DNA of 64,000 nt, taken from positions 128,001 through 192,000 of the forward strand of contig CAWAOD010000003.1 in NCBI GenBank assembly GCA_963783575.1, written 5' to 3'. The notes below the pieces were generated by a model that saw only the letters and a list, made by a program, of their open reading frames with translations, made no database searches and had not been told where the DNA came from. Positions 6,755-38,108 of this stretch are shown here, piece by piece; position 1 is the first letter of the stretch; every line of letters starts with the position of its first letter. This DNA is from an uncultured Spirochaetota bacterium (GTDB lineage Bacteria; Spirochaetota; Brevinematia; Brevinematales; JAOACQ01). The position numbers were made by a program, and so were the translations under genes.

Positions 6755-6847
6755 AGAGCCACGTATAACATCGTGTTATTTGGCGAACTAATGTTCGCCA
6801 CTGGCTTATATATTAAAGAGTGGATATAATGGCGCATCCTTGCGCCC
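6755..6847 (-). repeat. Three-hairpin dispersed element, copy A
   Basis: Minus strand: GGCGCA-agga-TGCGCC, ~30 nt, TGGCGAAC-atta-GTTCGCCA, ATAACA-cga-TGTTAT. Confidence 0.8.
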
Positions 6848-7147
6848 AGAGTTCATGCCGAGCCCGTCGAAGCACGGTTTCCATAGCGTAGATATCTGCT
6901 TATTAAATATTGAATTATCCGATTTTTATTAAACATTCTTATTTCATTCAATAGCGGGACAATAGACAATCGTTTTAACCTTCAAGCTAAGAAGCAATAG
7001 GAGCACGGACAATTTTGCTGAAAAATAATGTGAAATGGCGCTAATGCTGCAGAGGCATTAAAGCAGACTTATTTTATTGCTAAAGATTATTGGAAACTGC
7101 TACAGGAAAAAGAATCACTGGTATAACCTACAAATCAAACAATCAAT

Positions 7148-7236
7148 GGGAGCAGGATGCTCCATAACATTCTCCCAATAGTTAAAAGCTAGCCGAACGC
7201 TAGTTCGGCAGCGACACGATGTTGCAAAGAAGCTCT
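7148..7236 (+). repeat. Three-hairpin dispersed element, copy B
   Basis: GGAGCA-gga-TGCTCC, 28 nt, GCCGAAC-gcta-GTTCGGC, GCGACA-cga-TGTTGC. Confidence 0.8.
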
Positions 7237-7257
7237 TAAATAATTTTATTTTTTCTA

Positions 7258-7286
7258 TTGACATATGATTTTTTATGAATTATGAT
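7258..7286 (+). promoter_or_regulatory. Sigma70-type promoter upstream of the DUF6429-SWIM-cas region
   Basis: TTGACA (7258-7263), 17 bp spacer, TATGAT (7281-7286). Confidence 0.6.
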
Positions 7287-7465
7287 TAAGCGTTTGAAAT
7301 CAGTTGGATGCTATTCTGACAGAATGGTATTGATAAAATAATAAATAAAATGATTCCTTTCAAGAAACTAAGGCCATACCAAAGGTTTCTGGTTTTACCT
7401 TCAGTACCGATTTACTCAAAAATAATCATAACGGACCATTAATTATTATGAACCGGGAGGCGTTC

Positions 7466-7684
7466 ATGGATTATAACAAAGAAAAAGCGGACGAAGTATG
7501 CCTGGCTCTTCTGATTTTGACATCATTTGAGGAAAAGGGAATAATAAAAGACGAACCCATTCGTAAAGCATGGAAAGGGATGGCATGGGAAGTCCTGGGC
7601 AGGCTTTATGAAAAAGGGTATATCAGCGATCCGAAGAATAAAAACGGGGAAAGGATTAGTATACTTCGACTGCACTCTGTATAA
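7466..7684 (+). pseudogene. DUF6429 family protein, apparently C-terminally truncated
   Basis: MDYNKEKADEVCLALLILT...RKAWKGMAWEVLGRLYEKGYISDPKNK resembles DUF6429. The usual KSVxLTEEG tail is missing and a REP-like CTTCGACTGCACTC (~7664-7677) lies there. GGAGG RBS at 7456. Confidence 0.6.
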
Positions 7685-7761
7685 ACTCTGCCTCTGAGGA
7701 AGTATGGACTAGGGATTTGATGTTTTTTAACAGGAAAAAGGAACGGGGAGGAGAGAAAAAA

Positions 7762-9415: not shown

Positions 9416-9454
9416 AAATAATGTTGACATTAAGATAAAAGAAGGGGGAAGTGA

Positions 9455-11971
9455 ATGGAGAAGGAAAGGGAGTTTATAGCGCATTATAGGGAAAAAGATA
9501 AGAAACCTCAAACTGTAGCAGAACATTTACTACAAGTTTCCCAAAAAACTGGTAAATTTGCATCAATAATCGGTTTAAAGGAAGTTGGAGAACTTATCGG
9601 TTTGCTTCATGATCTAGGAAAATACAGTGAAGAATTTCAAAATTATATTGGATCGGCAACGGGATTAATTGATATTGATGAAGAAAATTATGTTGATAAA
9701 ATCGGGAAGAAAGGAAAAATTGACCATTCCAGCGCAGGAGCGCAGGTAATTTTTGAATATTTTTTTCCTAAAGGCCCAGAGGGTCTGATTATCGGTCAAT
9801 TTTTATCTCTGTGCATAGCTTCACATCATTCAGGATTAATTGACTGCATTGAACCGGATGGAACAAATAATTTCAGTCGTCGTTTAAGTAAATCGGAAGA
9901 AAAGACTCACAAAAACGAGGCTATGAATAATATTTCCGATGATTTAAAACAAAAATTAAATAAGTTATTATCTGATGAAACTGTTGTCAATCAATTAGTC
10001 TGCAAGCTTAAGAATTTAATAGACAAAAATAACGATTCAAAAGAAACTTTTAATTTCAAGAGAGGTTTATTGATTCGCTTTCTTTTTAGCTGTCTGGTTG
10101 ATGCCGATCGTCTGGATTCAGCAGCTTTTGAAAAACCGGTAGGAACTATGTTTAGAAATTATGGGGATTATACCTCCTGGGATATTTTAATTGAAAGGCT
10201 GAATCAAAAAATCATCGAATTTGACGCTAAGGTAAATAGAAATAAAGTGGATCGGATCAGAAAAGAAATATCCGATGACTGCTATTCTTTTGCTGATCAT
10301 ACAAATGGAATTTATCAATTGACAGTCCCAACAGGCGGGGGGAAAACTCTTTCCAGTTTAAGGTTTGCTCTTTGCCATGCAAGACGGAATAAAATGGATA
10401 GAGTTGTTTATATTGTTCCTTTCACTACCATTATCGACCAAAATGCAGAAGAAGCAAGAAAAATTCTGGAGGATCGGGATTCAAAAGGAAAATATTTGAA
10501 CCGCGTAGTATTGGAACATCATTCAAACTTAACACCGGAAGAAGAGAACTGGACACAAAAGTTATTATCGGAAGACTGGGATGCGCCGGTTGTATTTACA
10601 ACCAGTGTTCAATTTTTAGAATGTTTGTTTGGATTCGGTACCAGAAGTGCAAGAAGAATGCACCAGCTGGCTAATTCGGTAATTATTTTTGATGAGATTC
10701 AAACTATACCGATAAGGTGTGTTCATCTTTTTAATATTGCTCTTCGCTTTCTGGTTCAGAATTGTGGATCGACGGCAGTACTTTGCACTGCGACTCAACC
10801 GCTCCTTGATTTATCTAAAATAAAACCGGAATATAAAACTCGCTCTTTATCCATCATGCCAGAACAACAGATGATGAAAGATGTGAATAAGCTTTTTAAG
10901 AATTTGAATCGGGTTGAGGTATTTTATAAGAGAATAGCTGGAGGCTGGACAGATATCGATGTAAAAGATTTGGTTCTGGAAGAACTTCAGGAAACGGGAA
11001 GTGTCTTGATAGTTGTTAATACAAAAAAATCGGCAAAAACATTGTATAAAACTATCCTGAATGAAAACCGGGGAAAAACTTTTCATTTGAGTACCGATAT
11101 GTGCCCCAGACACAGAATGATCGTTTTGAAGTATATTAAAAGACGTCTGAAAAAAGAACCTATTATTTGTATTAGCACACAATTGATAGAAGCCGGTGTT
11201 GATATTGATTTTGGGTCGGTTATCCGTTATCTGGCCGGTTTAGACTCCATTGCGCAGGCGGCTGGACGCTGTAACCGTGAAAACAGATTATGCGATTCCG
11301 AAGGGAATTTAAAACCCGGCCGGGTTTTTATTATTAATCCGATAGATGAAAATCTTGATAAACTTGAGAATATCAGTATAGGCAAAGAAATAACGGAACG
11401 TGTATTAAATGCGTATAAAAATACACCGAATAGTTTTGATAACAATATACTGGGACCAAAGGCTATGGAACTTTATTATCAATATTATTTTTATGAACGG
11501 CAGAATAAAATGAATTATCCTGTTGGAAAAAATTCGGAAGCTGGCAGGGAGGATAATTTATTTAACTTATTATCAGTCAACAGCCTGTCTGTTAAAAATT
11601 ACTGGAAAAACAATAATGATACATCACCGAACATACCGCTGAAACAGGCTTTTATGACCTCTGCGAAAGAATTTCGTGCATTTGATTTACCCACAAGAAG
11701 CTTGATTGTGCCTTTCGGAAGAATGGGAAAAAAGATAATAAATGAACTTTGTGCTTCACCGGATATGGAAAAAGAATTTAAACTTCGTAAAAAAGCACAG
11801 AGGTATTCAATTAATTTGTTTCCCTATATTTTCGATAAGTTGATTAAGAAGGGGGCTATTCATGAAGTTCAGAAAGGAGCAGGCATATATATTCTGGACA
11901 AACAATATTACAGCAATCAATTTGGACTGAGCGAAGAACCTGTCAACGAAATGGAATTTTTAAACATATAA
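9455..11971 (+). CDS. cas3: CRISPR-associated helicase/nuclease Cas3
   Basis: HD domain (QTVAEHL, LLHDLGK, IDHS, SHHSGL, LVDADRLD); SF2 motifs PTGGGKT, DEIQ, TAT, STQLIEAGVDID, QAAGRCNRE. Confidence 0.95.
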   Translation: MEKEREFIAHYREKDKKPQTVAEHLLQVSQKTGKFASIIGLKEVGELIGLLHDLGKYSEEFQNYIGSATGLIDIDEENYVDKIGKKGKIDHSSAGAQVIFEYFFPKGPEGLIIGQFLSLCIASHHSGLIDCIEPDGTNNFSRRLSKSEEKTHKNEAMNNISDDLKQKLNKLLSDETVVNQLVCKLKNLIDKNNDSKETFNFKRGLLIRFLFSCLVDADRLDSAAFEKPVGTMFRNYGDYTSWDILIERLNQKIIEFDAKVNRNKVDRIRKEISDDCYSFADHTNGIYQLTVPTGGGKTLSSLRFALCHARRNKMDRVVYIVPFTTIIDQNAEEARKILEDRDSKGKYLNRVVLEHHSNLTPEEENWTQKLLSEDWDAPVVFTTSVQFLECLFGFGTRSARRMHQLANSVIIFDEIQTIPIRCVHLFNIALRFLVQNCGSTAVLCTATQPLLDLSKIKPEYKTRSLSIMPEQQMMKDVNKLFKNLNRVEVFYKRIAGGWTDIDVKDLVLEELQETGSVLIVVNTKKSAKTLYKTILNENRGKTFHLSTDMCPRHRMIVLKYIKRRLKKEPIICISTQLIEAGVDIDFGSVIRYLAGLDSIAQAAGRCNRENRLCDSEGNLKPGRVFIINPIDENLDKLENISIGKEITERVLNAYKNTPNSFDNNILGPKAMELYYQYYFYERQNKMNYPVGKNSEAGREDNLFNLLSVNSLSVKNYWKNNNDTSPNIPLKQAFMTSAKEFRAFDLPTRSLIVPFGRMGKKIINELCASPDMEKEFKLRKKAQRYSINLFPYIFDKLIKKGAIHEVQKGAGIYILDKQYYSNQFGLSEEPVNEMEFLNI

Positions 11972-11981
11972 GGGGTGACAT

Positions 11982-12768
11982 ATGGAAAACAGAATCAGAA
12001 ACACGGTTGAATTCAAGGTATCCGGTAAATATGCCCTGTTTACCGACCCACTCACAAAAATCGGCGGTGAAAAATGTTCCTACCAAATTCCAACCTACGA
12101 AGCTCTAAAGGGCATTCTCAGTTCCGTTTACTGGAAACCCACAATTATCTGGATTATTGACAGAATGCGGGTAATAAAACGCATCAAAACCCAGACCAGG
12201 AGTATGAAACCTCTGAATTATGGAGGTGTATATCCAACGGCTAGAGATTTAAGCAAAAAAGAAGAACCATTTAACTCATTGTCAATTTATACTTATCTTG
12301 CCGATGTGGAATATCAGGTTCAGGCGCATTTTATATGGAACAAGTATCGGGAGGATATGACGAAAGACAGGAATGAAAATAAGCACCATTGCGTTGCCCG
12401 CAGGATGATCGAGCGCGGTGGCAGGCGGGATATTTTTCTGGGAACACGGGAGTGCCAGGGATATGTAGAGCCTTGTGTATTCGATAAAGAAACGGGATTT
12501 TATGACAATTATGGTGAACTTTCTTTTGACCTGATGTTTCATGGATTTGATTATCCGGATGAGATCGGAGAACCGAAACTTTACTCACGGTTTTGGAGGC
12601 CGAAGATGATAAACGGAATTATTGATTTTATCAACCCGGATGAAAAAAACGATAATCGTCATGAAACGGAAGTTTGTCAGAAGAATGACCGCAAAACCTC
12701 TGGCTTCAAACGGACTTGAAGAAGAAGGCTTGTTGGAAGGTTGTGAAAATAAGGAGGCGGAAATATGA
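11982..12768 (+). CDS. cas5: Type I-C Cas5c (Cas5d); +1 frameshift at A7 run 12643-12649 near the 3' end
   Basis: ALFTDPLTKIGGEKCSYQIPTYEALKGIL..YWKPT, GGRRDIFLGTRECQGYV. Removing one A gives KRKFVRRMTAKP..GLEEEGLLEG ending at a TGA that overlaps the cas8c ATG. Confidence 0.9.
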
Positions 12769-14726
12769 GCTGGATTCAAAAGCTCTATGATACCTATGAA
12801 GCATGTCAACCTGTGATTGGAAAGGATATTAAAAATCCGCTTTTGCCAATATGCCACATTTTACAAAAGGTTCAAATTGAGATTACAATTGATAACGAGG
12901 GCAATTTTATTAAAGCAGAACCAATATATAACGAAAACGAAGCAAAAACAATAATTCCTTGTACAGAAAACTCCGCAAGCAGAACAAATAGTCCAGCACC
13001 ACACGCGCTTTGTGATAAATTACAATATGTTGCGGCAGATTATAAGGAATTTGGCGGAGAAAAAAAATCATATTATAGTGATTATCTAAAACTGTTAGAG
13101 TCCTGGTGTAAATCAGAATTCAAACATCCGAAAGCTGTAGCTGTCTTTGAGTATATTAAAAAATGCCGAATAATTGCGGACTTAGTGGATTCTAAGGTTT
13201 TTTATGCTAAAGATGGAAAATTAATGAAAAAGTGGGAAGGAGAAAAAAAGGATAAGCCAAAACTGTTTACAATTTTCCAAAATCAGACTTGGCAAGCTGA
13301 GTCATTTATACGATGGATTATTATAAAACCGGGAGAACTCCAGACAAAAACTTGGACTGATGAATCTCTCTGGAAAAGCTGGATAGATTATTATTCAAAT
13401 TTAAGAAATGAAAAAGGATTCTGTTATGTAAAAGGAACTTCCTTATTACTTACAGACTTACACTCAAGGTACATCAGGAAAGAGGGAGATGGAGCAAAAT
13501 TAATTTCTTCTAATGACACATCTGGCTATACCTTCCGTGGTCGGTTCTTAAATGCAGATCAAGCCAGTGGAGTCAGTTTGGAAGTTTCCCAAAAGGCGCA
13601 TCTTGCATTGCAATGGCTAATAAGGCGGCAGGGGAAGATTTTTTATGTCAAAGGTGATAATGGAAAGTTTGAACCCGCTTTAACTATTGTTGCTTGGTCA
13701 ATTTCCGAAAATCAAACTCCTGATTTAATAATGGTTGATACCTCTGGGATAATAGGTGAAGACGATTTGCCAAGTGATGAAGCATCGTTAGCCTATACCG
13801 CCCAGGATTTTGCTTTAAAATTGAACAAAAAAATTTCCGGTTACAGTCAAAATCTGAGAGATACAAAAGGTGTAGTTGTGATGGGTCTGGATTCCGCCAC
13901 TCCCGGACGTATGGCAATCACTTTTTATAGAGAATTGACCAGTTCGGAATTCCTGGATCGGGTAGAAAACTGGCACAAGACCTGTTCCTGGATTCATGAT
14001 TATGGTGTAAAAGAAATAGATAAAGATGGTAAAATGGAGAAATCTTACTATCGGTTCGTCGGCGCTCCATCTCCTGATGACATTGCACTGGCAGCCTACG
14101 GCAGGCATTTGGATGATAAACTCCGTAAATCGACCGTGGAAAAGCTTTTACCGTGCATCATTGACGGGCAAAAATTGCCAAAAGGTCTGGTAGAGTCGGC
14201 GATCAGTCGTGCGAGTAACAGGGTTGGAATGAAAAATTGGGAATGGAACAAAACGCTCAGCATTGCCTGCGCGCTTTATAGAAAATATTACGAGAATGAA
14301 AATTATAACGGAAAGGAGGGTTTTGATATGGCACTTGAAGAAAACCGAAGAACCAGGGATTATCTTTACGGAAGGCTTCTAGCACTTGCAGACAGGCTGG
14401 AGGAATATGCGTTAAGCAAATCAGGAGAAAAAAGGGCGACAAACGCCGCAAGATATATGCAGCAATTTGCTAACCGTCCCAATAAGACATGGCAGCAGAT
14501 TGAGACGGCATTATCTCCTTATCTTGCAAGACTAGGAGGCAGGGCAATCTGGTATAAAGATTTGGTAGATGAAGTAATGGGCAAATTCGATTCAGTCGAG
14601 AGCTTTACGTTAGATAAACCATTAACTGGTGAATTCTTATTGGGCTATCATTGTCAAAGAGAAAAGCTAAAACCATCAAAAAAAGAAGAAAATCAGGATG
14701 ATTTTTCTGAAAAACAAGAAAGTTGA
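12765..14726 (+). CDS. cas8c: Type I-C large subunit Cas8c (Csd1)
   Basis: MSWIQKLYDTY, TIIPCTENSASRT..PHALCDKLQYVA, AKLISSND..GYTFRGRF, LDSATPGRMAI, DYLYGRLLA, EFLLGYHCQR. Confidence 0.95.
   Translation: MSWIQKLYDTYEACQPVIGKDIKNPLLPICHILQKVQIEITIDNEGNFIKAEPIYNENEAKTIIPCTENSASRTNSPAPHALCDKLQYVAADYKEFGGEKKSYYSDYLKLLESWCKSEFKHPKAVAVFEYIKKCRIIADLVDSKVFYAKDGKLMKKWEGEKKDKPKLFTIFQNQTWQAESFIRWIIIKPGELQTKTWTDESLWKSWIDYYSNLRNEKGFCYVKGTSLLLTDLHSRYIRKEGDGAKLISSNDTSGYTFRGRFLNADQASGVSLEVSQKAHLALQWLIRRQGKIFYVKGDNGKFEPALTIVAWSISENQTPDLIMVDTSGIIGEDDLPSDEASLAYTAQDFALKLNKKISGYSQNLRDTKGVVVMGLDSATPGRMAITFYRELTSSEFLDRVENWHKTCSWIHDYGVKEIDKDGKMEKSYYRFVGAPSPDDIALAAYGRHLDDKLRKSTVEKLLPCIIDGQKLPKGLVESAISRASNRVGMKNWEWNKTLSIACALYRKYYENENYNGKEGFDMALEENRRTRDYLYGRLLALADRLEEYALSKSGEKRATNAARYMQQFANRPNKTWQQIETALSPYLARLGGRAIWYKDLVDEVMGKFDSVESFTLDKPLTGEFLLGYHCQREKLKPSKKEENQDDFSEKQES
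14328..14726 (+). CDS. cas11: Cas11c small subunit translated from an internal start in cas8c
   Basis: AAGGAGG RBS at 14313-14319 and in-frame ATG 14328 (MALEENRRTRDYLYGRLLA), giving 132 aa; internal Cas11 translation is established for type I-C. Confidence 0.8.
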   Translation: MALEENRRTRDYLYGRLLALADRLEEYALSKSGEKRATNAARYMQQFANRPNKTWQQIETALSPYLARLGGRAIWYKDLVDEVMGKFDSVESFTLDKPLTGEFLLGYHCQREKLKPSKKEENQDDFSEKQES

Positions 14727-14740
14727 AATAACGGAAGCAC

Positions 14741-14808
14741 CCGGTCATTGAGCGGAGTCGAAATGACCGGTAGATATTTGACGGGCACCTCGGCTCCGCT
14801 CGGTGTCC
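14741..14808. repeat. REP-like hairpin doublet between cas8c and cas7
   Basis: CCGGTCATT-gagcggagtcga-AATGACCGG, 12 nt, GGGCACC-tcggctccgctc-GGTGTCC. Confidence 0.8.
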
Positions 14809-14841
14809 AAATATAATAACAATTTTAAGGAGGAATTTTAT

Positions 14842-15805
14842 ATGGAAACTCTGAAAAACAAAATTGATTTCGCGGTAATTATCAGTGTCAAGAACGCCAA
14901 TCCGAACGGCGACCCACTCAATGGGAACCGTCCCAGGGTCAATTATGAAGGCGAAGGCGAGATTTCCGATGTCTGCATCAAGCGGAAAATCAGAAATAGA
15001 TTGATGGAAGCAGTTGAAACCGATGAAAAATGTGAACCAAAAATTAAAGATGGAAAGCCAATTTACAAATATAAAGTATTTGTCCAGCCGGATGATAATC
15101 GTTTAGATGATTATCGGAGCCTGCGTTCACGTGCGGAAGGCGAATTGAAAGGCATTGATATGAAAGATGATAAAAAGTACCGTGAAGAAGCCTGTAAGAA
15201 ATGGATTGATGTCCGTGCATTCGGGCAGGTGTTTGCCTATAAAGGTGGCAGTAAGAAAGGCAAGAAAGAAACAGAAGGTGAAGAGGAAAAAGGAGATGAT
15301 AAAGGGGTTTCGATAGGTATACGAGGCCCGGTTTCAATTCATTCCGCATTCTCGAAAGCTCTCGTGAATGATCGAGTATCAAGTATTCAAATAACAAAAA
15401 GCGTTAGTGGAGAAGGAGATAGCGGTAAGCGTGGTTCCGATACAATGGGTATGAAACATCGGGTAGATCATGGAATTTATGTATTCTATGGGGCTATGAA
15501 TCCACAGCTTGCAAAATTGCCGCATGGTACTGGCTTCAGTGACGATGATGCAAAAGCGATTAAAGAGACTTTAATTAAATTGTTCCAGAATGACGCTTCA
15601 TCGGCGCGTCCGGAAGGGAAGCATGGAAGTCGTAAAATTGTACTGGTGGCAGCATAATTGTGCTTCCGGGCAATATTCATCAGCTAAAGTTCACCGATCG
15701 TTGACGGTAGAACCAAAAAGTGATAATCCGAAATCGATTGAGGATTATGAGATAAAATTATCAGAATTGCCTGGTTTAAAGCCGGAAATATTGGATGGTT
15801 TATAA
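14842..15805 (+). CDS. cas7: Type I-C Cas7 (Csd2); +1 frameshift at GGG 15616-15618
   Basis: NANPNGDPLNGNRPR, SDVCIKRKIRN, WIDVRAFGQVF, IRGPVSI, DTMGMKH. Removing one base joins NDASSARPEG to SMEVVKLYWWQH..GQYSSAKVH. AAGGAGG RBS. Confidence 0.92.
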
Positions 15806-15840
15806 ATTTTCTCGAAATACTATAGGTTTTCTACTTTCCC

Positions 15841-15886
15841 TTCAGGATTGTACGGAGCAGTCGCGACTGCTCCGTACAATCCTGAA
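15841..15886. repeat. Perfect 46-bp palindrome (GTAG/GTAC-type REP-like) between cas7 and cas4
   Basis: TTCAGGATTGTACGGAGCAGTCG|CGACTGCTCCGTACAATCCTGAA is exactly self-complementary. Confidence 0.85.
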
Positions 15887-15940
15887 AGGCATAATGCGGC
15901 AAGGGTTCCTTAAGTAATATAATAAAAAGGAGGCCATCCA

Positions 15941-16589
15941 ATGCCCTATCCCGAATCCGATCTAATCGCCATCTCCGCACTCCAGCATTACATCTTCTGC
16001 CCCCGCCAGTGCGCGCTGATACATATCGAGCAGGCCTGGGAAGAGAACAGTTTAACCGCCGAGGGAAGAAACCTCCACGACCGCGCACATGGCGATTCGG
16101 CCGAAACCCGTCCGGATTGCCGGAGGATTTTTTGGCATGCCATTGAGGTCGCTGGAACTGGGTCTAACAGGAAAGGCCGACTGCGTAATGGAGACGCCGG
16201 AGGGTAAGTATATTCCACTTGAATATAAGCGCGGGAGGCCGAAAGTAAAAGAAATGGACACCGTCCAGCTCTGCGCGCAGGCTTTTTGCCTGGAGGAAAT
16301 GACGGGGAAAAACATTGAAGAGGGATTTATCTATTATTTCCGGATTAAAAAAAGGCTGCATGTTAATATCGATAAACCTTTAAGGGACTTGACGGAACAG
16401 ACTGTCCGCGGCATACGGACAATGATGGAAAGCGGCAGAACACCGCCGCCGGAATATTCCAAACGCTGCGAATCGTGCTCTCTGGAGGAACAATGCCTGC
16501 CGGAAGCGGTAGGTAAGAAAAAATCCGTGAAGAAATATATCGTGAAAATGTTGGCGGATGATATTTCTAAAGTAAATATAGGAGGCTGA
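15941..16589 (+). CDS. cas4: Cas4 nuclease; +1 frameshift at T6 run 16128-16133
   Basis: ISALQHYIFCPRQCALIHIEQAWEEN, GKADCV..PLEYKRGRPK, VQLCAQAFCLEEM, CESCSLEEQC; removing one T joins RRIF to GMPLRS. Confidence 0.92.
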
Positions 16590-16591
16590 AT

Positions 16592-16978
16592 ATGCCTTAT
16601 ATGTATATACTTGAATGCTCTGACGGGACCTATTATACTGGAAGTACATGGGATTTGGAAAAAAGATTGGATGAGCATAATAGTGGTGCCTCGGAGCCGC
16701 CAAGCGGCCGGGGAGCAAATTATACCAGGAAAAGACTGCCGGTAAAAATTGTTTATTTTGAACAATTTGAACGGATTGAATCTGCTTTTAAACGGGAAAA
16801 GCAAATTCAAAATTGGAGCCATGTGAAAAAGAAGGCTCTTATAGATGCAAATATTAATTTAATCCATAAATTTGCTATTTGCAGAAACCAAAGCCGGTCT
16901 CCGAGCGTAGTCGAGGAGCCGGATGATACGAAATGGTCGTCTCGGCTTCGCTCGACGACCGATATAAAAGGAAATTAG
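16592..16978 (+). CDS. Small GIY-YIG nuclease family protein (UPF0213-like) inserted between cas4 and cas1
   Basis: YMYILECSDGTYYTGST.DLEKRLDEHN..GANYTRKRLPV..AFKREKQIQNWSHVKKKALI; GGAGG RBS inside the cas4 3' end. Confidence 0.9.
   Translation: MPYMYILECSDGTYYTGSTWDLEKRLDEHNSGASEPPSGRGANYTRKRLPVKIVYFEQFERIESAFKREKQIQNWSHVKKKALIDANINLIHKFAICRNQSRSPSVVEEPDDTKWSSRLRSTTDIKGN
16894..16960. repeat. REP-like hairpin doublet in the GIY-YIG 3' end
   Basis: CCGGTCTCC-gagcgtagtcga-GGAGCCGG, 12 nt, GGTCGTC-tcggcttcgctc-GACGACC; same architecture as 14741-14808. Confidence 0.8.
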
Positions 16979-16980
16979 TC

Positions 16981-18012
16981 ATGAAACGCCTTCTCAACAC
17001 TTTATTTGTAACCACACAGAAAACCTACATGAGAAAACAGGGGGAAACACTGGTTGTCCAGCAGGGAAAGGACATTCTGCTTCAACTGCCGCTGATCAAT
17101 CTTTCAAGTATCGTCTGCTTCGGAAATATCCGCATCAGCCCTTTCCTGCTTGGGAATTGCCCGAAATACGGGATCAGTGTGAGTTTCCTGTCCCAATACG
17201 GCAAATTTCTCGCGCGTGTACAGGGTCCGGTATCCGGCAATGTACTGCTCAGGCGTGCCCAATACCGGATGACGGACGATTCTAAAATCTGTGCTGATAT
17301 TATCCGAAATATAGTCATCGGAAAGATTTCCAACTGCAGGACAGTTCTGCAAAGGGCGCAAAGAGACCATGCAGGTAAAATCGATGAAGCTAAAGTCAAT
17401 AGCGCTGTCGAATCACTGGAAAGGGCAATGAACAAAGCCATGGAAGCGAAAGAAGCGGATGTATTGCGTGGAATTGAAGGTGATGCGGCCCGTGAATATT
17501 TTGGAGTATTCAATGAATTAGTCGTCACACAAAAAAATGATTTTACATTTAATGAACGTTCAAGAAGGCCGCCGCTGGACAGGGTTAATGCTCTTTTGTC
17601 CTTTGTTTATACCCTGCTTTATCATGATATGCGCTCTGTACTGGAATCTACCGGGCTTGATCCGGCAGTCGGTTTTCTGCACCGCGACCGGCCGGGGAGA
17701 TTGTCGCTCGCTCTTGATTTGATGGAGGAATTCCGGCCGTATTTTGCGGACAGGCTTGTTTTGTCATTGATAAATCTTAAACAGATCGAACCGAGACAAT
17801 TCAGAATTCTGGAAAACGGCGCCGTTTTAATGAATGATGCGGCAAGGAAAACGGTTTTAGCAGCTTATCAAAAGCGCAAGCAGGATTCGATCAGGCATCC
17901 ATTTGTTGACAATGATATGCACATCGGCCTGTTATTTCATACGCAGGCTCTTCTTCTGGCAAGGTATATCCGGGGAGATATTGATGGCTACCCGCCTTTT
18001 ATCTGGAGGTAA
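16981..18012 (+). CDS. cas1: Type I-C Cas1
   Basis: MKRLLNTLFVTTQ, GPVSGNVLLRRAQY, LRGIEGDAAREYF, RSRRPPLDRVNALLSF, GFLHRDRPGR.SLALDLMEEFR, YPPFIWR. Confidence 0.96.
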   Translation: MKRLLNTLFVTTQKTYMRKQGETLVVQQGKDILLQLPLINLSSIVCFGNIRISPFLLGNCPKYGISVSFLSQYGKFLARVQGPVSGNVLLRRAQYRMTDDSKICADIIRNIVIGKISNCRTVLQRAQRDHAGKIDEAKVNSAVESLERAMNKAMEAKEADVLRGIEGDAAREYFGVFNELVVTQKNDFTFNERSRRPPLDRVNALLSFVYTLLYHDMRSVLESTGLDPAVGFLHRDRPGRLSLALDLMEEFRPYFADRLVLSLINLKQIEPRQFRILENGAVLMNDAARKTVLAAYQKRKQDSIRHPFVDNDMHIGLLFHTQALLLARYIRGDIDGYPPFIWR

Positions 18013-18014
18013 TT

Positions 18015-18302: not shown

Positions 18303-18476
18303 TGCGCGAACTACAGGGAAACATAAATTTGCATTTTATTGAGGTTATAGAACTATAGGCTATATATGAAAATAAAAAGGATTACAAAACGGATAAATAA
18401 TTTCTTTGATAATTTCTGTGGCTTCGCGGAAACAGCAATATAATATTTTGTTATATATGAAAATATCTTATATACA
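18303..18476 (+). promoter_or_regulatory. CRISPR leader
   Basis: AT-rich 174 bp between cas2 and repeat 1, with inverted GCGCGAAC (18304) ... CTTCGCG (18422) motifs as commonly seen in I-C leaders. Confidence 0.8.
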
Positions 18477-19900
<1,424 letters not shown>

Positions 19901-27920: not shown

Positions 27921-28038
27921 ATTGCACCTCCTAAATTTTAAATATTTTATCTTAAATGATATATTAATGTCAATAATTTTTGAAATAATTTAATTATAAT
28001 TTTTTATTTAAATAAAATACGGCAGCCCAAGTAAGCTC

Positions 28039-28118
28039 GGGAGCACGGATGCTCCATGAAATCCTCTCTTTAGCCAATAAAACCGCCGAACGATAGTTCG
28101 GCAGCGCAACGATTGCGC
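28039..28118 (+). repeat. Three-hairpin dispersed element, copy C
   Basis: GGAGCA-cgga-TGCTCC, 29 nt, GCCGAAC-gata-GTTCGGC, GCGCAA-cga-TTGCGC; abuts the stop codon at 28119. Confidence 0.8.
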
Positions 28119-29636
28119 CTAGAACCCCCAATACAACTCTGCTCCAACATTATACATATAAAACCCGAGCTCCCCCGGGTATCTGCCCAGCTCCTTACCG
28201 TAATAGGTCAGGTTCAATTTCAGATGAGCGTAAGTTAACGGAAATGCGAAATAGGAAATGGTCCTGATCCAGGATATTTTTTCAAGCCAGGCAAAAGTTA
28301 AATGAAGCGTTGCGCCCAGAGTAGGATAGCCCTGGTTTATACCTGCACCGATATGCAGCGTATCGAATAAAATTTTTGAATCAATGCCAAGATGAAGTTT
28401 TGAAAAAAAAGACACCGGATAAGTATAAAACATATCATCCATTTGAAAATAAATTGCCGGTTCATTTACAAACAATGTAACAATGTCCGGGAGCAGAAAA
28501 GTGTATTTCATACCTAGTGAAAGATCCGGAGGCAGCCAGCCTAATTGTTTTGACTTTGTCCAGTAAATTGGAGACAAAATGTCCGAAAGTTTAGCCGCAA
28601 TTGTAAACTCTTCAGTTACTGCCTTTGTCATTCCTATATCCAGTGCTGTTCCCCAGCCTTCCTTAACGATATTACCGTTAAGAAAAGGCGATATATCAAA
28701 TACGTTTGATGAAGTATTGTAGCGCTGAACATAATTTGTTATTTCCGATGTAAACTCCATGTAATCCTGAAGATTGGAAGCTTCTCCGGTAAGCAAATAA
28801 TATCCCCTTAAGGTAAAACCAAGGTTGAATTTCTCAATGAAGGGAAGCGTCATTTCACCTCCGCCAAGTGAAACAGCGGCGCCGGTCTGAAAATTCAATT
28901 TTATCACAGGATCATTCAGGAAAAAAACCAGGCTTCTGTCTGTTCCGAGAAGCCCCGCATAACCGTCCAGTGTTGTGTAAGCGCAAAAACCTATACCGTT
29001 TCTATACAATGACAGCCAGTTTAAATTATACATTGCGTAACCGCCGAGCTGGTCATACTGAAGGATATACGGCATGGCATTGGTCAAGTTGCCTTGCTGA
29101 CCGGATTTATCGAAGAGCGGGTATAAGTCAAGCATACCCAGCGAAAGGAAATTGAGATAACTTATTAAATCGGAGAAATTGAAAATATTTAAAACCGGCA
29201 GAGGGATGGTTGAATTTAAATCCGCATTTGACAATGAGCCTTTCAATTGAGGAATGGCTTTGCGGGATGCGTTCAGAAAATCCGATGTAAAACCGATTCC
29301 GGTGTAGGAATCAAGAATAAAAATCCTTCCGGGATGATAGTTGATTTCAAAGGCTTTCGGATCATACGCGACATCTATCGGATCGGGTATCATTTCTTCA
29401 AAACCGTTAATGTCATTCCGGTCTGGCTCATCGCTTTCCATAAAAAGCCTCGAATCAGTCTTGATTCTACCGTATTCAACCATTAACGCAGGGTTATTGA
29501 TCCCCGTAAAAGGCCCGTCTTTATCAAAAAGAGTGACTCCTCCGATAAATCCGGTATCCATTGACTCGAGATCAAGAGAATAGAAAATCGAAGCGCAGGT
29601 AAAGAAAATAAATAAAAAAAATATTATAAGTTTCAT
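28119..29636 (-). CDS. Putative outer-membrane beta-barrel protein (TraF/FadL-like fold)
   Basis: Signal peptide, early NNPAL motif, amphipathic strands (GWGTALDIGM, KLHLGID, GINQGYPTLG, YYGKELG.YPG), C-terminal YWGF. Confidence 0.55.
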   Translation of the reverse strand: MKLIIFFLFIFFTCASIFYSLDLESMDTGFIGGVTLFDKDGPFTGINNPALMVEYGRIKTDSRLFMESDEPDRNDINGFEEMIPDPIDVAYDPKAFEINYHPGRIFILDSYTGIGFTSDFLNASRKAIPQLKGSLSNADLNSTIPLPVLNIFNFSDLISYLNFLSLGMLDLYPLFDKSGQQGNLTNAMPYILQYDQLGGYAMYNLNWLSLYRNGIGFCAYTTLDGYAGLLGTDRSLVFFLNDPVIKLNFQTGAAVSLGGGEMTLPFIEKFNLGFTLRGYYLLTGEASNLQDYMEFTSEITNYVQRYNTSSNVFDISPFLNGNIVKEGWGTALDIGMTKAVTEEFTIAAKLSDILSPIYWTKSKQLGWLPPDLSLGMKYTFLLPDIVTLFVNEPAIYFQMDDMFYTYPVSFFSKLHLGIDSKILFDTLHIGAGINQGYPTLGATLHLTFAWLEKISWIRTISYFAFPLTYAHLKLNLTYYGKELGRYPGELGFYMYNVGAELYWGF

Positions 29637-29652
29637 ATAATATTACTTCAAA

Positions 29653-30021
29653 TCATTGCAGATCGTTAATCAAATTACTCGCATTGGTCACATCCGGCGA
29701 ATTTACTACATTGCTTATCTGCGCCAGCGAATTGCTGATGATAAAAGTCACCGTATTTGAATCATTAATCAGATTATTGGACAAAATCGTGATCTCATTG
29801 CTGATTTCAATAAGATCATTTGACAATTTTGTGAAATTTGAATTAGGGATGAATGACGGAGGAATATCAGTATTGGTATCAAAATAATACATTAAATTAG
29901 TATTAGTTATGTTTAACGGATCATTAGTCAAACTAACTAAATTACTTATTTTATTAATGTTGCTAATAGCATTATTTGCCAGAACACTAGCTTGATTTGA
30001 TAAGTCCGGCAAGTTAGTCAT
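29653..30021 (-). CDS. Asn-rich hypothetical protein; possibly the frameshifted C-terminus of the upstream lipoprotein
   Basis: TAATG overlap with the upstream stop, no RBS; adding one G to the G5 run (~30043-30047) fuses the two ORFs. Confidence 0.45.
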   Translation of the reverse strand: MTNLPDLSNQASVLANNAISNINKISNLVSLTNDPLNITNTNLMYYFDTNTDIPPSFIPNSNFTKLSNDLIEISNEITILSNNLINDSNTVTFIISNSLAQISNVVNSPDVTNASNLINDLQ

Positions 30022-31151
30022 TATATCGTAAATAAAGAGGAGCCCCCTTTAATTCCGCCGTTTGTACCGAATGTGTTATGAGTATTCCATGGCGTAGGAT
30101 TATAATTGCCTATACTTGTAATATAATTATAACTCCCTACGATAACAAAATGAAAATTGTTCATAACCTTACCGATAGCATCAGGCACTAATTTTCCAGT
30201 ATTTAACCTTTTAAAATAATTTGTCAAAATGCTCCTCGCGTTTGTATTGCTCATAGCATCCATAATTTCATCATAAAGATCGGCATAACCGTTATTTGTC
30301 CGGTAACCGTAGTCAGCATTAATCATTTTGAGATAATTTGAAGGTCTTATAACCGTATTATCTATTTTATCAGCGTAAGACAAATTATTAAAAACAAATT
30401 TATCAATCCCCATAACCTTTTCAATATTTTCATGGGCATTGGACAATTTATCAAGATTGGTTAAAACATCATTGGTTGAGAAGTTTGTCGATATGTTAGT
30501 CGTATCCATCAAATTAGAGATGATTTTATTATAATCGAAATTTGGGACCACATTCATGTTATCATTGGAAACAATTATGTAATCGTTGCTGTCGGCATAG
30601 ATTGAATTCCCGTCAGAATCCAGAAGATCAAGAAACAATGATGACATGTAAGCCATAAGAAGGATCTGGTTAATCTCCATATTATCGGGCGGGACAGCCT
30701 TATCGCCCTGGCCGTTTATTATGCCGTTGGGACTGTCAAGGACTCCGATTATATCCTTAAAAACCGTGGAAGTAGAGTACTTCATTAATATTTTTCCAGC
30801 ATCATCGGTATTAAGGGCATTGATTATATCGGCAGTTGTTTTTAACTCCCGCATTGAAAGATATATCAGTAAATCGGGCAGGAAAACCCTCATTTTTGTC
30901 CTGGCATAACCGAGGCGGGCCTTTGAATTTCCCGGATTTAAATTAATCGCGTTGGAATATTCTATCAAAGCCGCCGGATAATTTTGCTGGTTGTAATATT
31001 GATCTCCTCTCTGCGTATAATCTGAAGCCGAATAGCCTTCCATCGGCGGATTTATAGCCACAAATACATTGCAGGAAACTATTAATAAAAGTATAAAAAA
31101 AATGAATATGATATAGGCATAAAAAAAGAAGCCTTTTTTAAAACCGGACAT
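30021..31151 (-). CDS. Lipoprotein with N-terminal TPR motif
   Basis: Lipobox-like IVSC; YTQRGDQYYNQQNYPAALIEYSNAINLNPGNSKARLGYA TPR. Confidence 0.65.
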   Translation of the reverse strand: MSGFKKGFFFYAYIIFIFFILLLIVSCNVFVAINPPMEGYSASDYTQRGDQYYNQQNYPAALIEYSNAINLNPGNSKARLGYARTKMRVFLPDLLIYLSMRELKTTADIINALNTDDAGKILMKYSTSTVFKDIIGVLDSPNGIINGQGDKAVPPDNMEINQILLMAYMSSLFLDLLDSDGNSIYADSNDYIIVSNDNMNVVPNFDYNKIISNLMDTTNISTNFSTNDVLTNLDKLSNAHENIEKVMGIDKFVFNNLSYADKIDNTVIRPSNYLKMINADYGYRTNNGYADLYDEIMDAMSNTNARSILTNYFKRLNTGKLVPDAIGKVMNNFHFVIVGSYNYITSIGNYNPTPWNTHNTFGTNGGIKGGSSLFTI

Positions 31152-31172
31152 TTATAACTGCTCCTTTTCAGA

Positions 31173-31814
31173 TCATTTGACTACGGAATTGGTTCCTGAA
31201 TTTGAGTCATTTGTCTTATTATCATTTTTTACAGGTGCTATCGTATTTATTATATAATTCAGAACTTCGTCGGTTCTGCCGGAAATTGTTGAAAGCCAGT
31301 AGTTATAACCTGTTTCCCTGTTGTGCAGGTTGACATCTATAACAATATAACTGGAAAAGAAATTCTTATCGAATTGAAAATATTCTATATCACCGCTTAA
31401 AATTATATTAATTTCTTTTATCATATTTAAATTGTAAAATATATACGATCCGTCATTAACGCTGGTAACTTTTAATGTGCCTTCCTGCTCCCTGCTGTCC
31501 CTTGATGTTCGGATGCTGTTGGCAAGCCCGTAATTAAAAACCTTAATGCCGGCTTTCATCAGCCTTTTTTTCAGCTCCAAATTGACAAAATGTTTAATTT
31601 CAACCGGATCTTCATTTTTTGCCAGCAGGTTATCCGATCCGAAATCATCAAACAGAACGGATGAAACAAGAACATCGCCGCTATAAGGCATGTCAACCAT
31701 CATTACTGTTTTGGAGGAAAAATTATAATTTTTCAGGCTTCCTCCGTAAAAATATACAAAAACGGTAAAAATCATAAATAAAGCTGCTATACCAGTATTA
31801 AAAATCCTTATCAT
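31173..31814 (-). CDS. Hypothetical membrane-anchored protein
   Basis: 213-aa ORF with GGAGG RBS and N-terminal TM helix, in operon. Confidence 0.55.
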   Translation of the reverse strand: MIRIFNTGIAALFMIFTVFVYFYGGSLKNYNFSSKTVMMVDMPYSGDVLVSSVLFDDFGSDNLLAKNEDPVEIKHFVNLELKKRLMKAGIKVFNYGLANSIRTSRDSREQEGTLKVTSVNDGSYIFYNLNMIKEINIILSGDIEYFQFDKNFFSSYIVIDVNLHNRETGYNYWLSTISGRTDEVLNYIINTIAPVKNDNKTNDSNSGTNSVVK

Positions 31815-31826
31815 AAAAAATCCTCC

Positions 31827-32321
31827 TCAAAATTTCTTGATTTTAAATTCAAAACTGAAATCCCAGCCTAATCTTCCGATAAATAAAGGCAGGACAGTTA
31901 ATTCATAATATACCTTGAATCCGATGTAAAAGTTTCTGAAAACCGGTATTTGAATCCCGGCTCCAGCCGGAAAAGATAATCCCGGATAATTTATTAATAC
32001 TTTGTAACCAAGGAAAATAAAGGGATTTAACAATTCATCTGATATAAAAAACAGCCCCGGTTGAAATTGAGTGACCGGGAAATACTCAACTATGCTTCCT
32101 ATACTGAATTCATTATTAAATGGATTATAGCGGAAATAAACCGGTTTGATAGGCAGGAATAGCCAATCTTTTACAGTAAAGATCGGAGCCGTAAAAATAT
32201 CATAAGGGCCGTAAGCCAGTTCAACCCCGCGAAATTGAGGCTTTACATCCTCAAAAAAATCAAAACAATAAACAGGGCTTGATATTAATATAGATAATAA
32301 AATAAATTTAAAAATTTTCAT
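31827..32321 (-). CDS. Hypothetical secreted protein, possible small beta-barrel
   Basis: Signal peptide, aromatic alternating strands (NPFIFLGYK, AGAGIQIP, FYIGFKVYY, GWDFSFEFK), terminal F. Confidence 0.5.
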   Translation of the reverse strand: MKIFKFILLSILISSPVYCFDFFEDVKPQFRGVELAYGPYDIFTAPIFTVKDWLFLPIKPVYFRYNPFNNEFSIGSIVEYFPVTQFQPGLFFISDELLNPFIFLGYKVLINYPGLSFPAGAGIQIPVFRNFYIGFKVYYELTVLPLFIGRLGWDFSFEFKIKKF

Positions 32322-34855: not shown

Positions 34856-34877
34856 ATAATTATAAGGGAGGATTATT

Positions 34878-35894: not shown

Positions 35895-35903
35895 CCGCCC
35901 AAT

Positions 35904-36677
35904 ATGATACATAAAAAAAGTGACAGCCGCAAGGTTTATGAAAATTTCTCAAAATATTACGACCTGTATGTTCGGAATTTTTCCGAAGATATACCTATTT
36001 ATTTATCATTTTGCGGCAAAGATGATAAAATTCTGGAAATCGGCTGCGGTTCAGGTAGAATCCTAAGCCATTTTCTTAAAAACGGTTATGCAATCACCGG
36101 TGTTGATATTTCACAGGAAATGCTTGATCTGTCGGAATCAAAGCTCAAAAATTATATTATTAATGGGAAACTAAAACTTAAAAATCATGATTTCAGATTT
36201 TCCCCGTTTAAAGAAAGTTTTAATATGATTATGGTTACCTGGTATACGTTCAACTATATACTTGATAAAAAAGAACAGGAAAGTTTCCTGAAAAATATTT
36301 ATTTGTCTTTAAACACCGGCGGGAAATTAATTGCAGACCTTTTTTATCCCCGGACATATTCCAGACCGGAAATAGAAAACAAATGGACGGAAACGGAAAT
36401 AAGTTATAATGAATTTAAAATTCTATTGAGGGATAAAAGAAAAGTTGAAAATGGGATTGAAGAAAGGATACAAGAATTCATAAAAAATGGGACTGAAGAA
36501 GAAATTATAACATACAGAATATTTATAGATAAGGATACAATCAGGCAATTATTGAAAGACGCGGCTTTTACCGGAATTAAAATCACGGATGGCTATTCTC
36601 CCGATGGTTTTCATGAAGCTTTGCAAGGTGAAAAAGCCTTCAAAAATTTTATAATTACCGCAATAAAAAATAAATAA
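35904..36677 (+). CDS. Class I SAM-dependent methyltransferase
   Basis: ILEIGCGSGR, ITGVDISQEML, GGKLIAD. Confidence 0.88.
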   Translation: MIHKKSDSRKVYENFSKYYDLYVRNFSEDIPIYLSFCGKDDKILEIGCGSGRILSHFLKNGYAITGVDISQEMLDLSESKLKNYIINGKLKLKNHDFRFSPFKESFNMIMVTWYTFNYILDKKEQESFLKNIYLSLNTGGKLIADLFYPRTYSRPEIENKWTETEISYNEFKILLRDKRKVENGIEERIQEFIKNGTEEEIITYRIFIDKDTIRQLLKDAAFTGIKITDGYSPDGFHEALQGEKAFKNFIITAIKNK

Positions 36678-36693
36678 TTTCAGATATATAAAT

Positions 36694-37950
36694 CTATTTA
36701 AGTACTGCCGCCATTTCTCCAAGACTACCCTGAGATTGATCTCCGTTTGAGAGGTTGCGCAGGGTATAAATTCCTTTTTTAACCTCATCTTCCCCGACAA
36801 ACAGTGCATATTTCGCCTTCATTGAATCGGCCGATTTAAGATGCTTTTTAAGCGAGGAATAACGGTATTCGGTTACAGCCGAAATATTCTTTTTCCTTAA
36901 GTTTGATACTATCTCAAGTGCTTTCATCCTGAATTCCTCGCCTATAAATGCGACATATACAGTTGGCGGAATATAATACCCGGTTTTTCCCGGTCCTCGG
37001 TTTTCAAGCATAAGGGCCAATCTTTCCATACCTATGGCAAATCCAGCCGCCGGAGTATCCATCCCGCCAAGGTCTTTTATTAAATAATCATAACGTCCGC
37101 CCGCCGAGACAGTGCTTTGCGCTCCGGCATTTGAAGCTTTGACTTCAAATACGGTTCGGTTGTAATAATCCAGGCCCCGTACAAGCCTGGGATCAATCAG
37201 GTAAGGGATTTTCAATACTTCAAGTCCTTTCTTGACGCTGTTAAAATGGGCTTCACAGTCTGTGCATAATGAATCGATCATAACCGGAGCGTCCTTTAAA
37301 AACGGCGCGCATTTTTCCTCCTTGCAGTCGAGGATGCGCAGGGGATTGGATCCGAATCTTTTTTTACAGTCCTCGCACATTAAACCGATTTTACCTGAAA
37401 AATAATCTTTCAGGTTTTCAAGATGTTGCGGTCGGCAAACTCTGCATCCGATAGAATTTATGTATATTGTAACATCGGAAATTCCCAATTGATCGAAAAT
37501 GTCATGGTTTAATTTTATAAGTTCGACATCAACAAAGGGATTTCCGTCACCGAGATATTCCGCGCCATACTGTATAAATTGCCTGTATCTTCCGGCCTGC
37601 GGATTTTCAGCGCGGAACATCGGGCCGGAGTAGTAAAGCCGGGAGGCATATCCCTGCATAGAAAGCCCGTTTTCCAGGTAAAGCCTTACAGCGGAAGCCG
37701 TTCCTTCGGGCCGCAAAGCTATCTGCCTGTGTCCCCTGTCTTCGAATACATACATTTCCTTTTTTACAACAATATCCGAAGAATCGCCGACTCCCCGGAT
37801 AAACAAATTGGCATACTCGATCACAGGAAAGACAACTTTTTTATATCCATAATCCGATAGTATTTTCCCCAGTTTATCTTCAATGAAGCTGTAAAAATCA
37901 GACTCATCCGGCGGAATATCATAAGTTCCCTTTAATTTAACATAGTCCAT
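36694..37950 (-). CDS. hisS: Histidine-tRNA ligase
   Basis: KGTYDIPP, LRPEGTAS, MFRAENPQAGRYRQF, LVRGLDYY, GGRYD, GFAIGMERL. Confidence 0.97.
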   Translation of the reverse strand: MDYVKLKGTYDIPPDESDFYSFIEDKLGKILSDYGYKKVVFPVIEYANLFIRGVGDSSDIVVKKEMYVFEDRGHRQIALRPEGTASAVRLYLENGLSMQGYASRLYYSGPMFRAENPQAGRYRQFIQYGAEYLGDGNPFVDVELIKLNHDIFDQLGISDVTIYINSIGCRVCRPQHLENLKDYFSGKIGLMCEDCKKRFGSNPLRILDCKEEKCAPFLKDAPVMIDSLCTDCEAHFNSVKKGLEVLKIPYLIDPRLVRGLDYYNRTVFEVKASNAGAQSTVSAGGRYDYLIKDLGGMDTPAAGFAIGMERLALMLENRGPGKTGYYIPPTVYVAFIGEEFRMKALEIVSNLRKKNISAVTEYRYSSLKKHLKSADSMKAKYALFVGEDEVKKGIYTLRNLSNGDQSQGSLGEMAAVLK

Positions 37951-37983
37951 CTGCAACTCCTTGATGTAGTTGTCAAACTAGAT

Positions 37984-38012
37984 ATAATAAAATAAAATAT
38001 TCCGAATGTCAA
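37984..38012 (-). promoter_or_regulatory. Sigma70-type promoter of hisS
   Basis: Minus strand TTGACA (38012-38007), 17 bp, TATTAT (37989-37984). Confidence 0.55.
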
Positions 38013-38025
38013 ACAAGCGTGCCCT

Positions 38026-38108
38026 GCGACATCGTGCCGCTTGGTGAACTTGCGTTCGCCACTGTCTTTATGCTGCTTGAAGAGCCCTCATGGAGCATCC
38101 ATACTCCA
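38026..38108 (-). repeat. Three-hairpin dispersed element, copy D
   Basis: Minus strand TGGAGTA-tgga-TGCTCCA, 29 nt, TGGCGAAC-gcaa-GTTCACCA, GCGGCA-cga-TGTCGC. Confidence 0.8.

Follow-up and report, generated by a model that had tools for sequence, protein, structure and literature searches.

Four copies of a short three-hairpin sequence occur in a 64,000-nucleotide stretch of DNA (the window) from an uncultured Spirochaetota bacterium (GenBank assembly GCA_963783575.1, contig CAWAOD010000003.1, positions 128,001 to 192,000), and they raise the question of whether this element is a structured RNA, a distributed sink for CsrA, or mobile DNA. The source genome, here G000 (4.9 Mb, 18 contigs, 90% complete), contains the window at C3:128001-192000. 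We use F for the orientation adopted in the initial annotation, in which hairpin H1 is followed by a linker and hairpins H2 and H3, R for the opposite strand, and c1 to c4 for the copies in the window (Table 1). The element is very probably a mobile DNA repeat of some kind. It is likely a ∼95-base, genus-level dispersed repeat that is moved as folded single-stranded DNA (ssDNA) by an HUH-type cut-and-rejoin enzyme acting in trans, with the enzyme resembling the Y1 transposases or the tyrosine transposases associated with REPs (RAYTs). Our confidence is about evenly balanced when the element is classed as a non-autonomous relative of repetitive extragenic palindromic sequences (REPs), bacterial interspersed mosaic elements (BIMEs), or palindrome-associated transposable elements (PATEs) that an HUH-type enzyme moves. 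We favor such an enzyme because the element ends exactly beside a host tetranucleotide on one side, duplicates no target, has strand-polar hairpins, and grows as a mosaic. These features match the cutting and rejoining of single strands that HUH enzymes carry out for IS200/IS605 and TnpA-REP (PMC10055086, PMC3479197, PMC6006769). On insertion, IS200/IS605 elements come to lie next to a tetra- or pentanucleotide motif, and the PATEs they leave have no genes (PMC10055086, PMC3479197).

Copy number and fold of the family

A covariance-model search of the genome, as the initial annotation had proposed, was carried out with a profile built from c1-c4 and iterated once; it returned 117 matches at E<0.01 in 89 clusters of G000, whereas the same genome in reverse gave 0 at E≤1. 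The window contained exactly c1-c4 at 72-95 bits (these copies belong to the training set), with the next match at 15 bits, and the three-hairpin layout was confirmed at all four positions in the sequence and by the model. The description of a four-copy, wholly intergenic element thus holds for the window but undercounts the family, and six copies elsewhere lie inside an IS1182 transposase gene. There were 90 full-length matches, and the 85 that were under 95% identical were used for the counts. Core identity between non-neighbor copies averages 63%, the H1-H2 linkers of c1-c4 measure 31, 28, 29, and 31 nt, and a long-H2 variant with a 22-nt loop expansion is found at L006:3562-3682 and G000 C9:333896.

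The compensatory stem changes first seen in four copies are real across the family. With 51 of the ∼117 copies, 91.4% of stem cells were paired, changes on both sides occurred at 14 of 19 pairs, and 0 of 500 shuffles scored as high; the structure was derived from the same 51 sequences, which biases the slid control. Three of the four non-Watson-Crick pairs in c1-c4 are indeed G-T on the F strand, but over the 85 copies G-T and A-C mismatches number 57 and 74 (17 versus 29 in single-mismatch helices, p = 0.10), and the G-U argument for an RNA was a small-sample effect. Folding energy favors F in 39/85 copies when calculated for RNA and in 54/85 when calculated for DNA. Neither the H1 nor the H3 loop was inverted in any of the 117 copies, and this invariant polarity suggests a strand-specific reader. 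The H2 loop is GNNA in 42/54 cases and GNRA in 8/54, where GNNA is a stable DNA loop.

In agreement with the earlier view that no known family could be assigned, the copies had no Rfam match at the gathering level, and the E-value mode applied to 10 loci gave a single overlapping match of 19 bits against a cut-off of 58.6. An intrinsic terminator was rejected as an identity (TTTT follows H2 in 8/85 copies and H3 in 0/85), as was a mini-open reading frame (ORF) starting from the ATG in H1 (1-87 codons, unconserved).

Junction rules, landing sites, and mechanism

Conservation past H3 continues for four bases (A-N-R-G on F) and then stops. Read on R, the H3 stem is immediately preceded by C-Y-N-(T/G) in 31 of the 43 flank contexts that are independent, which were drawn from the 74 of 85 copies with intact H3; the background is 5.4%. 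Among 92 clusters (with four of five near-identical copies borne by insertion sequences, ISs, dropped), duplications of the flanks, whether direct or inverted and whatever their length, did not rise above controls, and we found no capture of neighboring gene ends, no copying of linkers from local DNA, and no closing stem or terminal inverted repeats. On the H1 side, conservation fades over ∼16 nt and the varying flanks run into other repeats; on the opposite strand, a degenerate tetranucleotide is present at a distance of 7 nt before H1 (GTGG in 13/85, GTAG in 6/85). One sharp end beside a 4-nt motif with no duplication fits the HUH/REP-type alternative that the initial annotation had offered beside the RNA interpretation. 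A classical MITE (miniature transposable element with inverted repeats) mobilized by a DDE transposase was rejected, as terminal inverted repeats and target duplication are lacking.

The exact end is often found behind a gene. According to crude longest-ORF gene calls, 19/85 copies have their H3 foot at most 15 nt from the stop, read on R, of an ORF of ≥100 codons, compared to 3.6% for random intergenic placement and 2/85 at the other end. TAG is at the foot in six copies and is a real stop in five of these, including c3, while 4.5% of the available TAGs are stops. For citrate synthase, the terminal residue is the same in 5/5 homologs and H3 begins at the next base; the stop position is ancestral for the L027 gene (4/4 homologs), which from reading alone we take to be hydrogenase-subunit-like, and the end is the same in 4/5 homologs of the L366 gene, presumably endonuclease-IV-like on the same basis. 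Stop positions are shared for 4/7 of the H3-side genes with a match in the same-genus genome G001. Since these stops are ancestral, the four junction bases are host DNA in those cases, a host origin shown for a few empty/filled pairs. The end of an acetyl-CoA synthase-like gene was uninformative, with no homolog among 42 genomes, and so was the radical-SAM gene beside c1 (stop at 6746-6748, 16 nt before the H3 foot), with homologs that differ at their C-termini. Copies are enriched between convergent genes (22/83 versus 14.6% of intergenic length), and the neighbors are mostly housekeeping genes.

Further landing sites are not protein-coding gene ends. One copy follows tRNA-Ala in each of two rRNA spacers and is absent there in G001; the four bases past the tRNA end are common to G001 and G000, and two other genomes differ. 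In its place in the G001 rRNA spacer (L251:1100-1460) a small protein-coding gene lies between tRNA-Ala and 23S, the product of which, by reading alone, we assume to be four-helix-bundle-like. Other short palindromic repeats are found at L010:3050-3100 (rRNA spacer) and ∼4285-4310, the latter apparently inside the 23S gene. The copies in the IS1182 transposase gene (five whole, one partial) can be compared with intact alleles, which reveals that ∼25-28 host bases were replaced and that up to 8 bases are in common with the H3 end.

Host bases also contribute to the hairpin. In the G000 tRNA-Ala copy, the four host bases and the last tRNA base make up the H3 outer arm, with an exact, non-canonical complement of these bases as the inner arm. 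Similarly, the outer arm includes two bases of the gene end at L027 and four gene-end bases, including the ancestral stop, at L366, with matching inner arms at both; as a caution, a site lacking a stop has the L366 type of stem as well, and the inner arm of L027 is seen again in its tandem neighbor. Either the site was chosen by pairing or the arms were corrected later by template switching, which is described to perfect short inverted repeats (PMC5941160). The family is structure-conserving, as was first claimed, but the case for selection on structure is weaker than it looks given these three junctions: the arms match host bases, an outcome that template switching can yield in the absence of selection, and covariation alone is no proof of selection on RNA. 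That stem covariation can involve host-derived bases is a warning for RNA-motif discovery.

The copies are mosaics. The H1, H2, and H3 stem types combine freely, and the identities of the segments (H1, linker, H2, H3) correlate with rho of 0.18 or less, a value that a star-like history would also lower. Two or three copies are present in 24/89 clusters, mostly head-to-tail, and neighbors are no more alike than random pairs (identity 0.65 versus 0.63, 19 pairs, p = 0.51), with three pairs excepted. A frequent neighbor of the element is a ∼220-nt repeat with inverted motifs at its termini, which bears the three weak TwoAYGGAY matches of the genome. This larger repeat is found at G000 C4:95651-95871 and at least 10 more places, and at L101-L103, and some of its copies have the element inserted near one end.

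In the mechanism that we propose, the R strand would be cut at the H3 foot and joined 3′ of a host C-Y-N-(T/G), whereas the H1 end would be loose and carry donor flank, so that mosaics of the BIME type arise with other repeats. Joins or deletions that encroach repeatedly on the gene would be purged until the stop codon is reached; alternatively, the exposed non-template strand behind the stop may be preferred. Mismatched arms may be corrected later by template switching, or sites may be chosen by pairing. The GGA loop of H1 is likely a DNA-level recognition mark common to several repeat families, and it serves as the target of an IS1182-like lineage. A more elaborate version appears quite unlikely to us: the inner H3 arm would serve as a built-in guide that pairs with host DNA, H3 would be completed on insertion, an ssDNA transposase would deliver the element to the non-template strand at the end of translation, and the A(N)GGAY loop would be a DNA address, rather than a CsrA site, common to many dispersed repeats (TwoAYGGAY-like), read by the mobilizer and parasitized by the IS1182 lineage.

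Several results weigh against an HUH-type mobilizer. Among Y1 HUH genes, only two broken ones of RAYT-like type were found in G000 (Table 1), and the REP that flanks this lineage, both in G000 and at 8/11 related loci, is a different one. No TnpB was found in G000; a search for an IS91-type gene was negative, with the control search equally silent; and no cognate enzyme was found in this 90% complete genome, from which its gene may be missing. No guide position was seen to covary with the tetranucleotide, and module shuffling could mask such covariation; no replication-strand bias was significant (p 0.09-0.77, where GC skew is weak). The other 3/7 genes with G001 matches have different C-termini and are uninformative, and microhomology joining explains the IS1182 site equally well with its ∼8 nt common to host and element. 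We also found no nuclease gene flanked by the best-conserved copies, which the initial annotation had suggested seeking, no autonomous TnpA/TnpB element with the same ends in the incomplete genome, and no RAYT relatives in viral contigs. Element copies are located 0.3-0.8 kb from both RAYT-like genes (on C4, once an IS is discounted), inside larger mosaics. An IS4-family element inserts at the center of the RAYT-associated palindrome at several places.

An enzyme-free origin would combine host recombination and microhomology joins between hairpin-rich repeats with template-switch polishing, the copies being kept behind stops as mRNA-end stabilizers or translation tuners on the R strand, a role that Escherichia coli REPs play within 15 nt of a stop. 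This explanation, which we hold to be unlikely, would accommodate the 3-8 nt in common at the two best junctions, the module shuffling, the excess between convergent genes, the perfecting of inverted repeats by template switching, and the position of the 19 copies within 15 nt of a stop, which is the distance reported for REPs (PMC12306157). It leaves unexplained the fixed end with its 4-nt motif in 31 of 43 unrelated contexts, the invariant loop polarity, and the insertion into a transposase gene; also against it, the copies are not intrinsic terminators, and the orthologous G001 sites are without the element.

The tRNA-Ala junction also bears on an attC-like ssDNA recombination site or a retro-element, spread by an integron-like recombinase or a group II intron reverse transcriptase. 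An AAC triplet is shared at this junction and present at two others, no duplication is made, and G000 contains cassette arrays and an intron-type reverse transcriptase (putative names). The modules nevertheless pair locally and vary independently with no end-to-end stem, the citrate synthase join at the stem foot has no GTT/AAC, and the neighbors are for the most part housekeeping genes rather than cassettes, all of which makes this origin highly improbable. The element is likewise not an integron attC site by structure, having no end-to-end hairpin with paired AAC/GTT boxes and not following a cassette gene.

The GGA loop as a DNA target and the CsrA question

The GGA loop of H1 also tops hairpins of other repeat families in G000, where CA(N)GGAYG hairpins number 93 (45 in the element, 29 elsewhere intergenic) compared to 4, 9, 9, and 34 for control loops. 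A 1,850-bp IS is present in four copies and encodes a 538-aa transposase that is IS1182-like, scoring 216 bits where the family cut-off is 270, and a 148-149-bp MITE with related ends has 20 paired copies. Both duplicate 6 bp, often in a hairpin loop, with the consensus A-H-G-G-A-Y, the fixed positions of which agree in 44 (A), 46 (G), 41 (G), 37 (A), and 37 (Y) of 48 flanks, although two flank pairs look like 5-bp duplications. Insertion was into the element H1 in 5/24 cases, while the element makes up 0.2% of the genome. In another genus, ANGGAY is present at each of the ten flanks of five relatives (G011 L230, L233, L235, L237, and L238; 51% protein identity). These insertions into GGA loops demonstrate that the A(N)GGAY loop is a DNA target. 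Copy c1 represents the empty state, since its closest relative (G000 C9:537800, 93% identical) has H1 interrupted by the IS1182-like element and the MITE. A transposase that reads the loop as DNA can be cloned and assayed.

At least three multi-copy IS1182-like families are present in G000, each with its own hairpin class as target. A 494-aa IS1182 (35 related ORFs, e.g., L007:1440-2921) is nearly always at the center of one short palindrome, and this palindrome is itself inserted in the element H1 loop several times. Another IS1182 lies in attC-like cassette junctions (L004, L005, L040), and it is this IS that has six copies with the element inside the transposase gene. These interrupted copies still spread, probably with the intact one at C16:116046-117530 acting in trans.

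We considered whether the element could itself be a passenger or end-less derivative moved by an IS1182-type DDE transposase that lands in hairpins, with partial target deletion and no duplication. The hairpin targeting of these families is compatible with this idea, as are the disappearance of a small host hairpin at the single site in a coding region, judged against the C16 allele, and the behavior of IS1272/TnSha1, which enters hairpins, deletes part of them, and duplicates nothing (PMC4923244). We judge it very unlikely in view of the missing terminal inverted repeats and closing stem, and where an IS lineage does meet the element, it breaks up H1 and creates duplications of 6 bp that are never seen for the element. 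IS1272/TnSha1, as a member of the IS1182 family, resembles the 538-aa lineage in landing in hairpins but differs in having neither duplication nor primary consensus, in contrast to the 6-bp A-H-G-G-A-Y duplication seen here in two genera. The AHGGAY target habit was not found in a limited literature search.

The initial annotation proposed distributed CsrA sinks, in which GGA-strand transcripts with one CsrA site per H1 would titrate CsrA through about a hundred copies. The match of H1 to the consensus stands: ACA(N)GGATGT is present in 30/85 copies and CA(N)GGAYG in 55/85, GGA is nearly invariant, the loop fits the CsrA consensus from systematic evolution of ligands by exponential enrichment (PMC4347634), the excess of such hairpins over control loops is that given above, and csrA is in the genome. 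The same idea has been put forward, as a hypothesis, for TwoAYGGAY (PMC4333381; bioRxiv 10.64898/2026.09.22.753630). The sink itself does not fare as well. Each unit has one site, and such motifs are generally paired (PMC4333381); H3 is equally conserved but has GGA in only 3/85 copies; there is no G-U bias; and H1 is often interrupted by insertions. Between co-directional genes the GGA strand is sense in 19 cases versus 27, and the opposite strand is sense behind stops and tRNA-Ala. Moreover, csrA is directly 3′ of fliW, whose product is a protein antagonist, and the same-genus genome has a handful of copies only. From these sequence features, a role as CsrA sink seems highly unlikely. Identity as a CsrB/RsmZ-type sink RNA was also rejected, for the GGA-loop consensus is present but with one site per unit and an unconserved strand. 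GGA-loop repeats like TwoAYGGAY are usually read as CsrA sponges from the motif alone.

Known systems, range, and other features

Comparison with REP/BIME/REPIN sequences and their RAYTs (PMC3479197, PMC6006769, PMC3733652) reveals shared properties: short imperfect palindromes in intergenic, lineage-specific, mosaic clusters, often just behind stops, without target duplication. The element differs by having three different hairpins in fixed order rather than doublets; it lacks the conserved GT[AG]G 0-2 nt 5′ of the hairpin foot and has C-Y-N-(T/G) at the H3 foot, its four conserved bases are host-derived where testable, and the local RAYT has another REP. PATEs (PMC10055086) are similarly gene-less, with a hairpin close to each end, a single sharp end that adjoins a 4-nt motif, and no duplication; the second end of the element, in contrast, is not sharp and has no precise element-encoded motif, and the element has no guide-target covariation or TnpA-IS200/TnpB partner that we found, and mosaic copies only ∼63% alike. 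By analogy, the element may work like a REP/BIME or a PATE, but it would belong to neither, with no GTAG foot, no cognate RAYT, and a loose second end.

TwoAYGGAY (RF01731) shares with the element its dispersal, variable copy number, A(N)GGAY loop, proposed CsrA binding, and suspected mobility, as described in PMC4333381 and bioRxiv 10.64898/2026.09.22.753630. The element has one GGA loop, no common basal stem, and mostly head-to-tail arrays as opposed to divergent doublets. RF01731 gave three matches in G000, all below the 43-bit threshold and all on the different adjoining repeat; with no pair of AYGGAY hairpins on a common basal stem and a score <43 bits, this identity was rejected. NTS/SRM repeats with Ssn GIY-YIG enzymes (PMC11893778) are comparable as polarized hairpin repeats recognized as ssDNA, and G000 has small GIY-YIG genes, but these are flanked by other repeats. 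They carry repeats of their own: four of the five loci were examined and the element flanks none of them, and the fifth is a 621-aa frame. A literature search on the H1 loop as a repeat gave nothing relevant. By Rfam the family is uncatalogued; the repeat consensuses in the supplements of bioRxiv 10.64898/2026.09.22.753630 and PMC6006769 may hold a closer relative. The family provides testable junction rules, namely that a single end is exact, that it adjoins a 4-nt motif of the host, that nothing is duplicated, and that landing is behind ancestral stops.

Among the genomes searched, the family is confined to one uncultured genus, with its cognate enzyme not found. The model matched 1/60 genomes in one set (G001, same genus, 57% complete) and 0/149 in a second, overlapping set, with 67 or 27 candidates scored per genome. 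G001 (1.6 Mb) had four strong and two weak matches. Two of the strong matches are on L098 (G001 C3), a 12.7-kb contig that matches the end of G000 C6 at 92% identity; since other G001 genes are ∼70-75% identical to those of G000, this contig was likely binned from the G000 lineage. Orthologous sites without the element in G001 and in another genus suggest that the copies were recently gained in the G000 lineage. Exact patterns had 0 matches in viral contigs and 41 single matches in 185,579 genomes, none with H1, and metagenome patterns had 0 matches in one scan and at least 120 in another, with no real copy among the matches listed; such matches are at chance level, and the pattern scans may leave out very near genomes.

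Table 1. Coordinates of the element copies, adjoining repeats, and related mobile genes (window positions unless a contig or locus is given)
Feature	Position	Strand	Details
Copy c1	6756..6856	-	H1 6846-6831, H2 6799-6782, H3 6779-6765; model match and sequence
Copy c2	7139..7234	+	H1 7149-7163, H2 7192-7209, H3 7211-7225; back-to-back with c1
c2 junction tetranucleotide	7226-7229		CTTT on minus strand
Copy c3	28030..28127	+	H1 28040-28055, H2 28085-28102, H3 28104-28118
c3 junction tetranucleotide	28119..28122	-	CTAG; TAG is the stop of the 505-aa ORF 28119-29636(-), directly at H3 foot
Copy c4	38017..38117	-	H1 38107-38092, H2 38060-38043, H3 38040-38026; upstream of hisS
c4 junction tetranucleotide	38022-38025		CCCT on plus strand
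Half H1-type hairpin, then IS1182-like remnant end	7000..7031	+	Hairpin 7000-7010; remnant 7011-7031, 20/21 nt identical to IS end
Terminal motif of second, larger repeat family	7032..7047	+	Family of ∼220 nt, weakly TwoAYGGAY-like, often adjoining element
Short palindromic repeat, other family	6858..6872	+	Fused to c1 H1 side (mosaic neighbor)
Short palindromic repeat, same family as 6858..6872	38180..38198	-	Mosaic on c4 H1 side
Broken RAYT-like genes	L001:1400-1990; L009:927-2765		Own long palindromes, one inside gene
538-aa IS1182-like IS	G000 C9:332047-333896, C9:535797-537646, C13:248248-250097, C16:108402-110251		

The palindrome at 6858..6872 may presumably be called CGTC/NTS-like, a label that we apply from resemblance alone. 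Five co-directional ORFs without a Pfam match (28119-32321, minus strand) end at c3. Elsewhere, the window contains a CRISPR-Cas locus at 9455-19850 (cas3, cas5, csd1, cas7, cas4, cas1) with 21 repeats at 18477-19846; 0/20 of its spacers match elsewhere in G000. A small GIY-YIG gene with its own palindromes is situated between cas4 and cas1 (16592-16978). The window also includes an Azaaromatic riboswitch at 2044-2151 on the minus strand and a 6S RNA at 41069-41268 on the plus strand.

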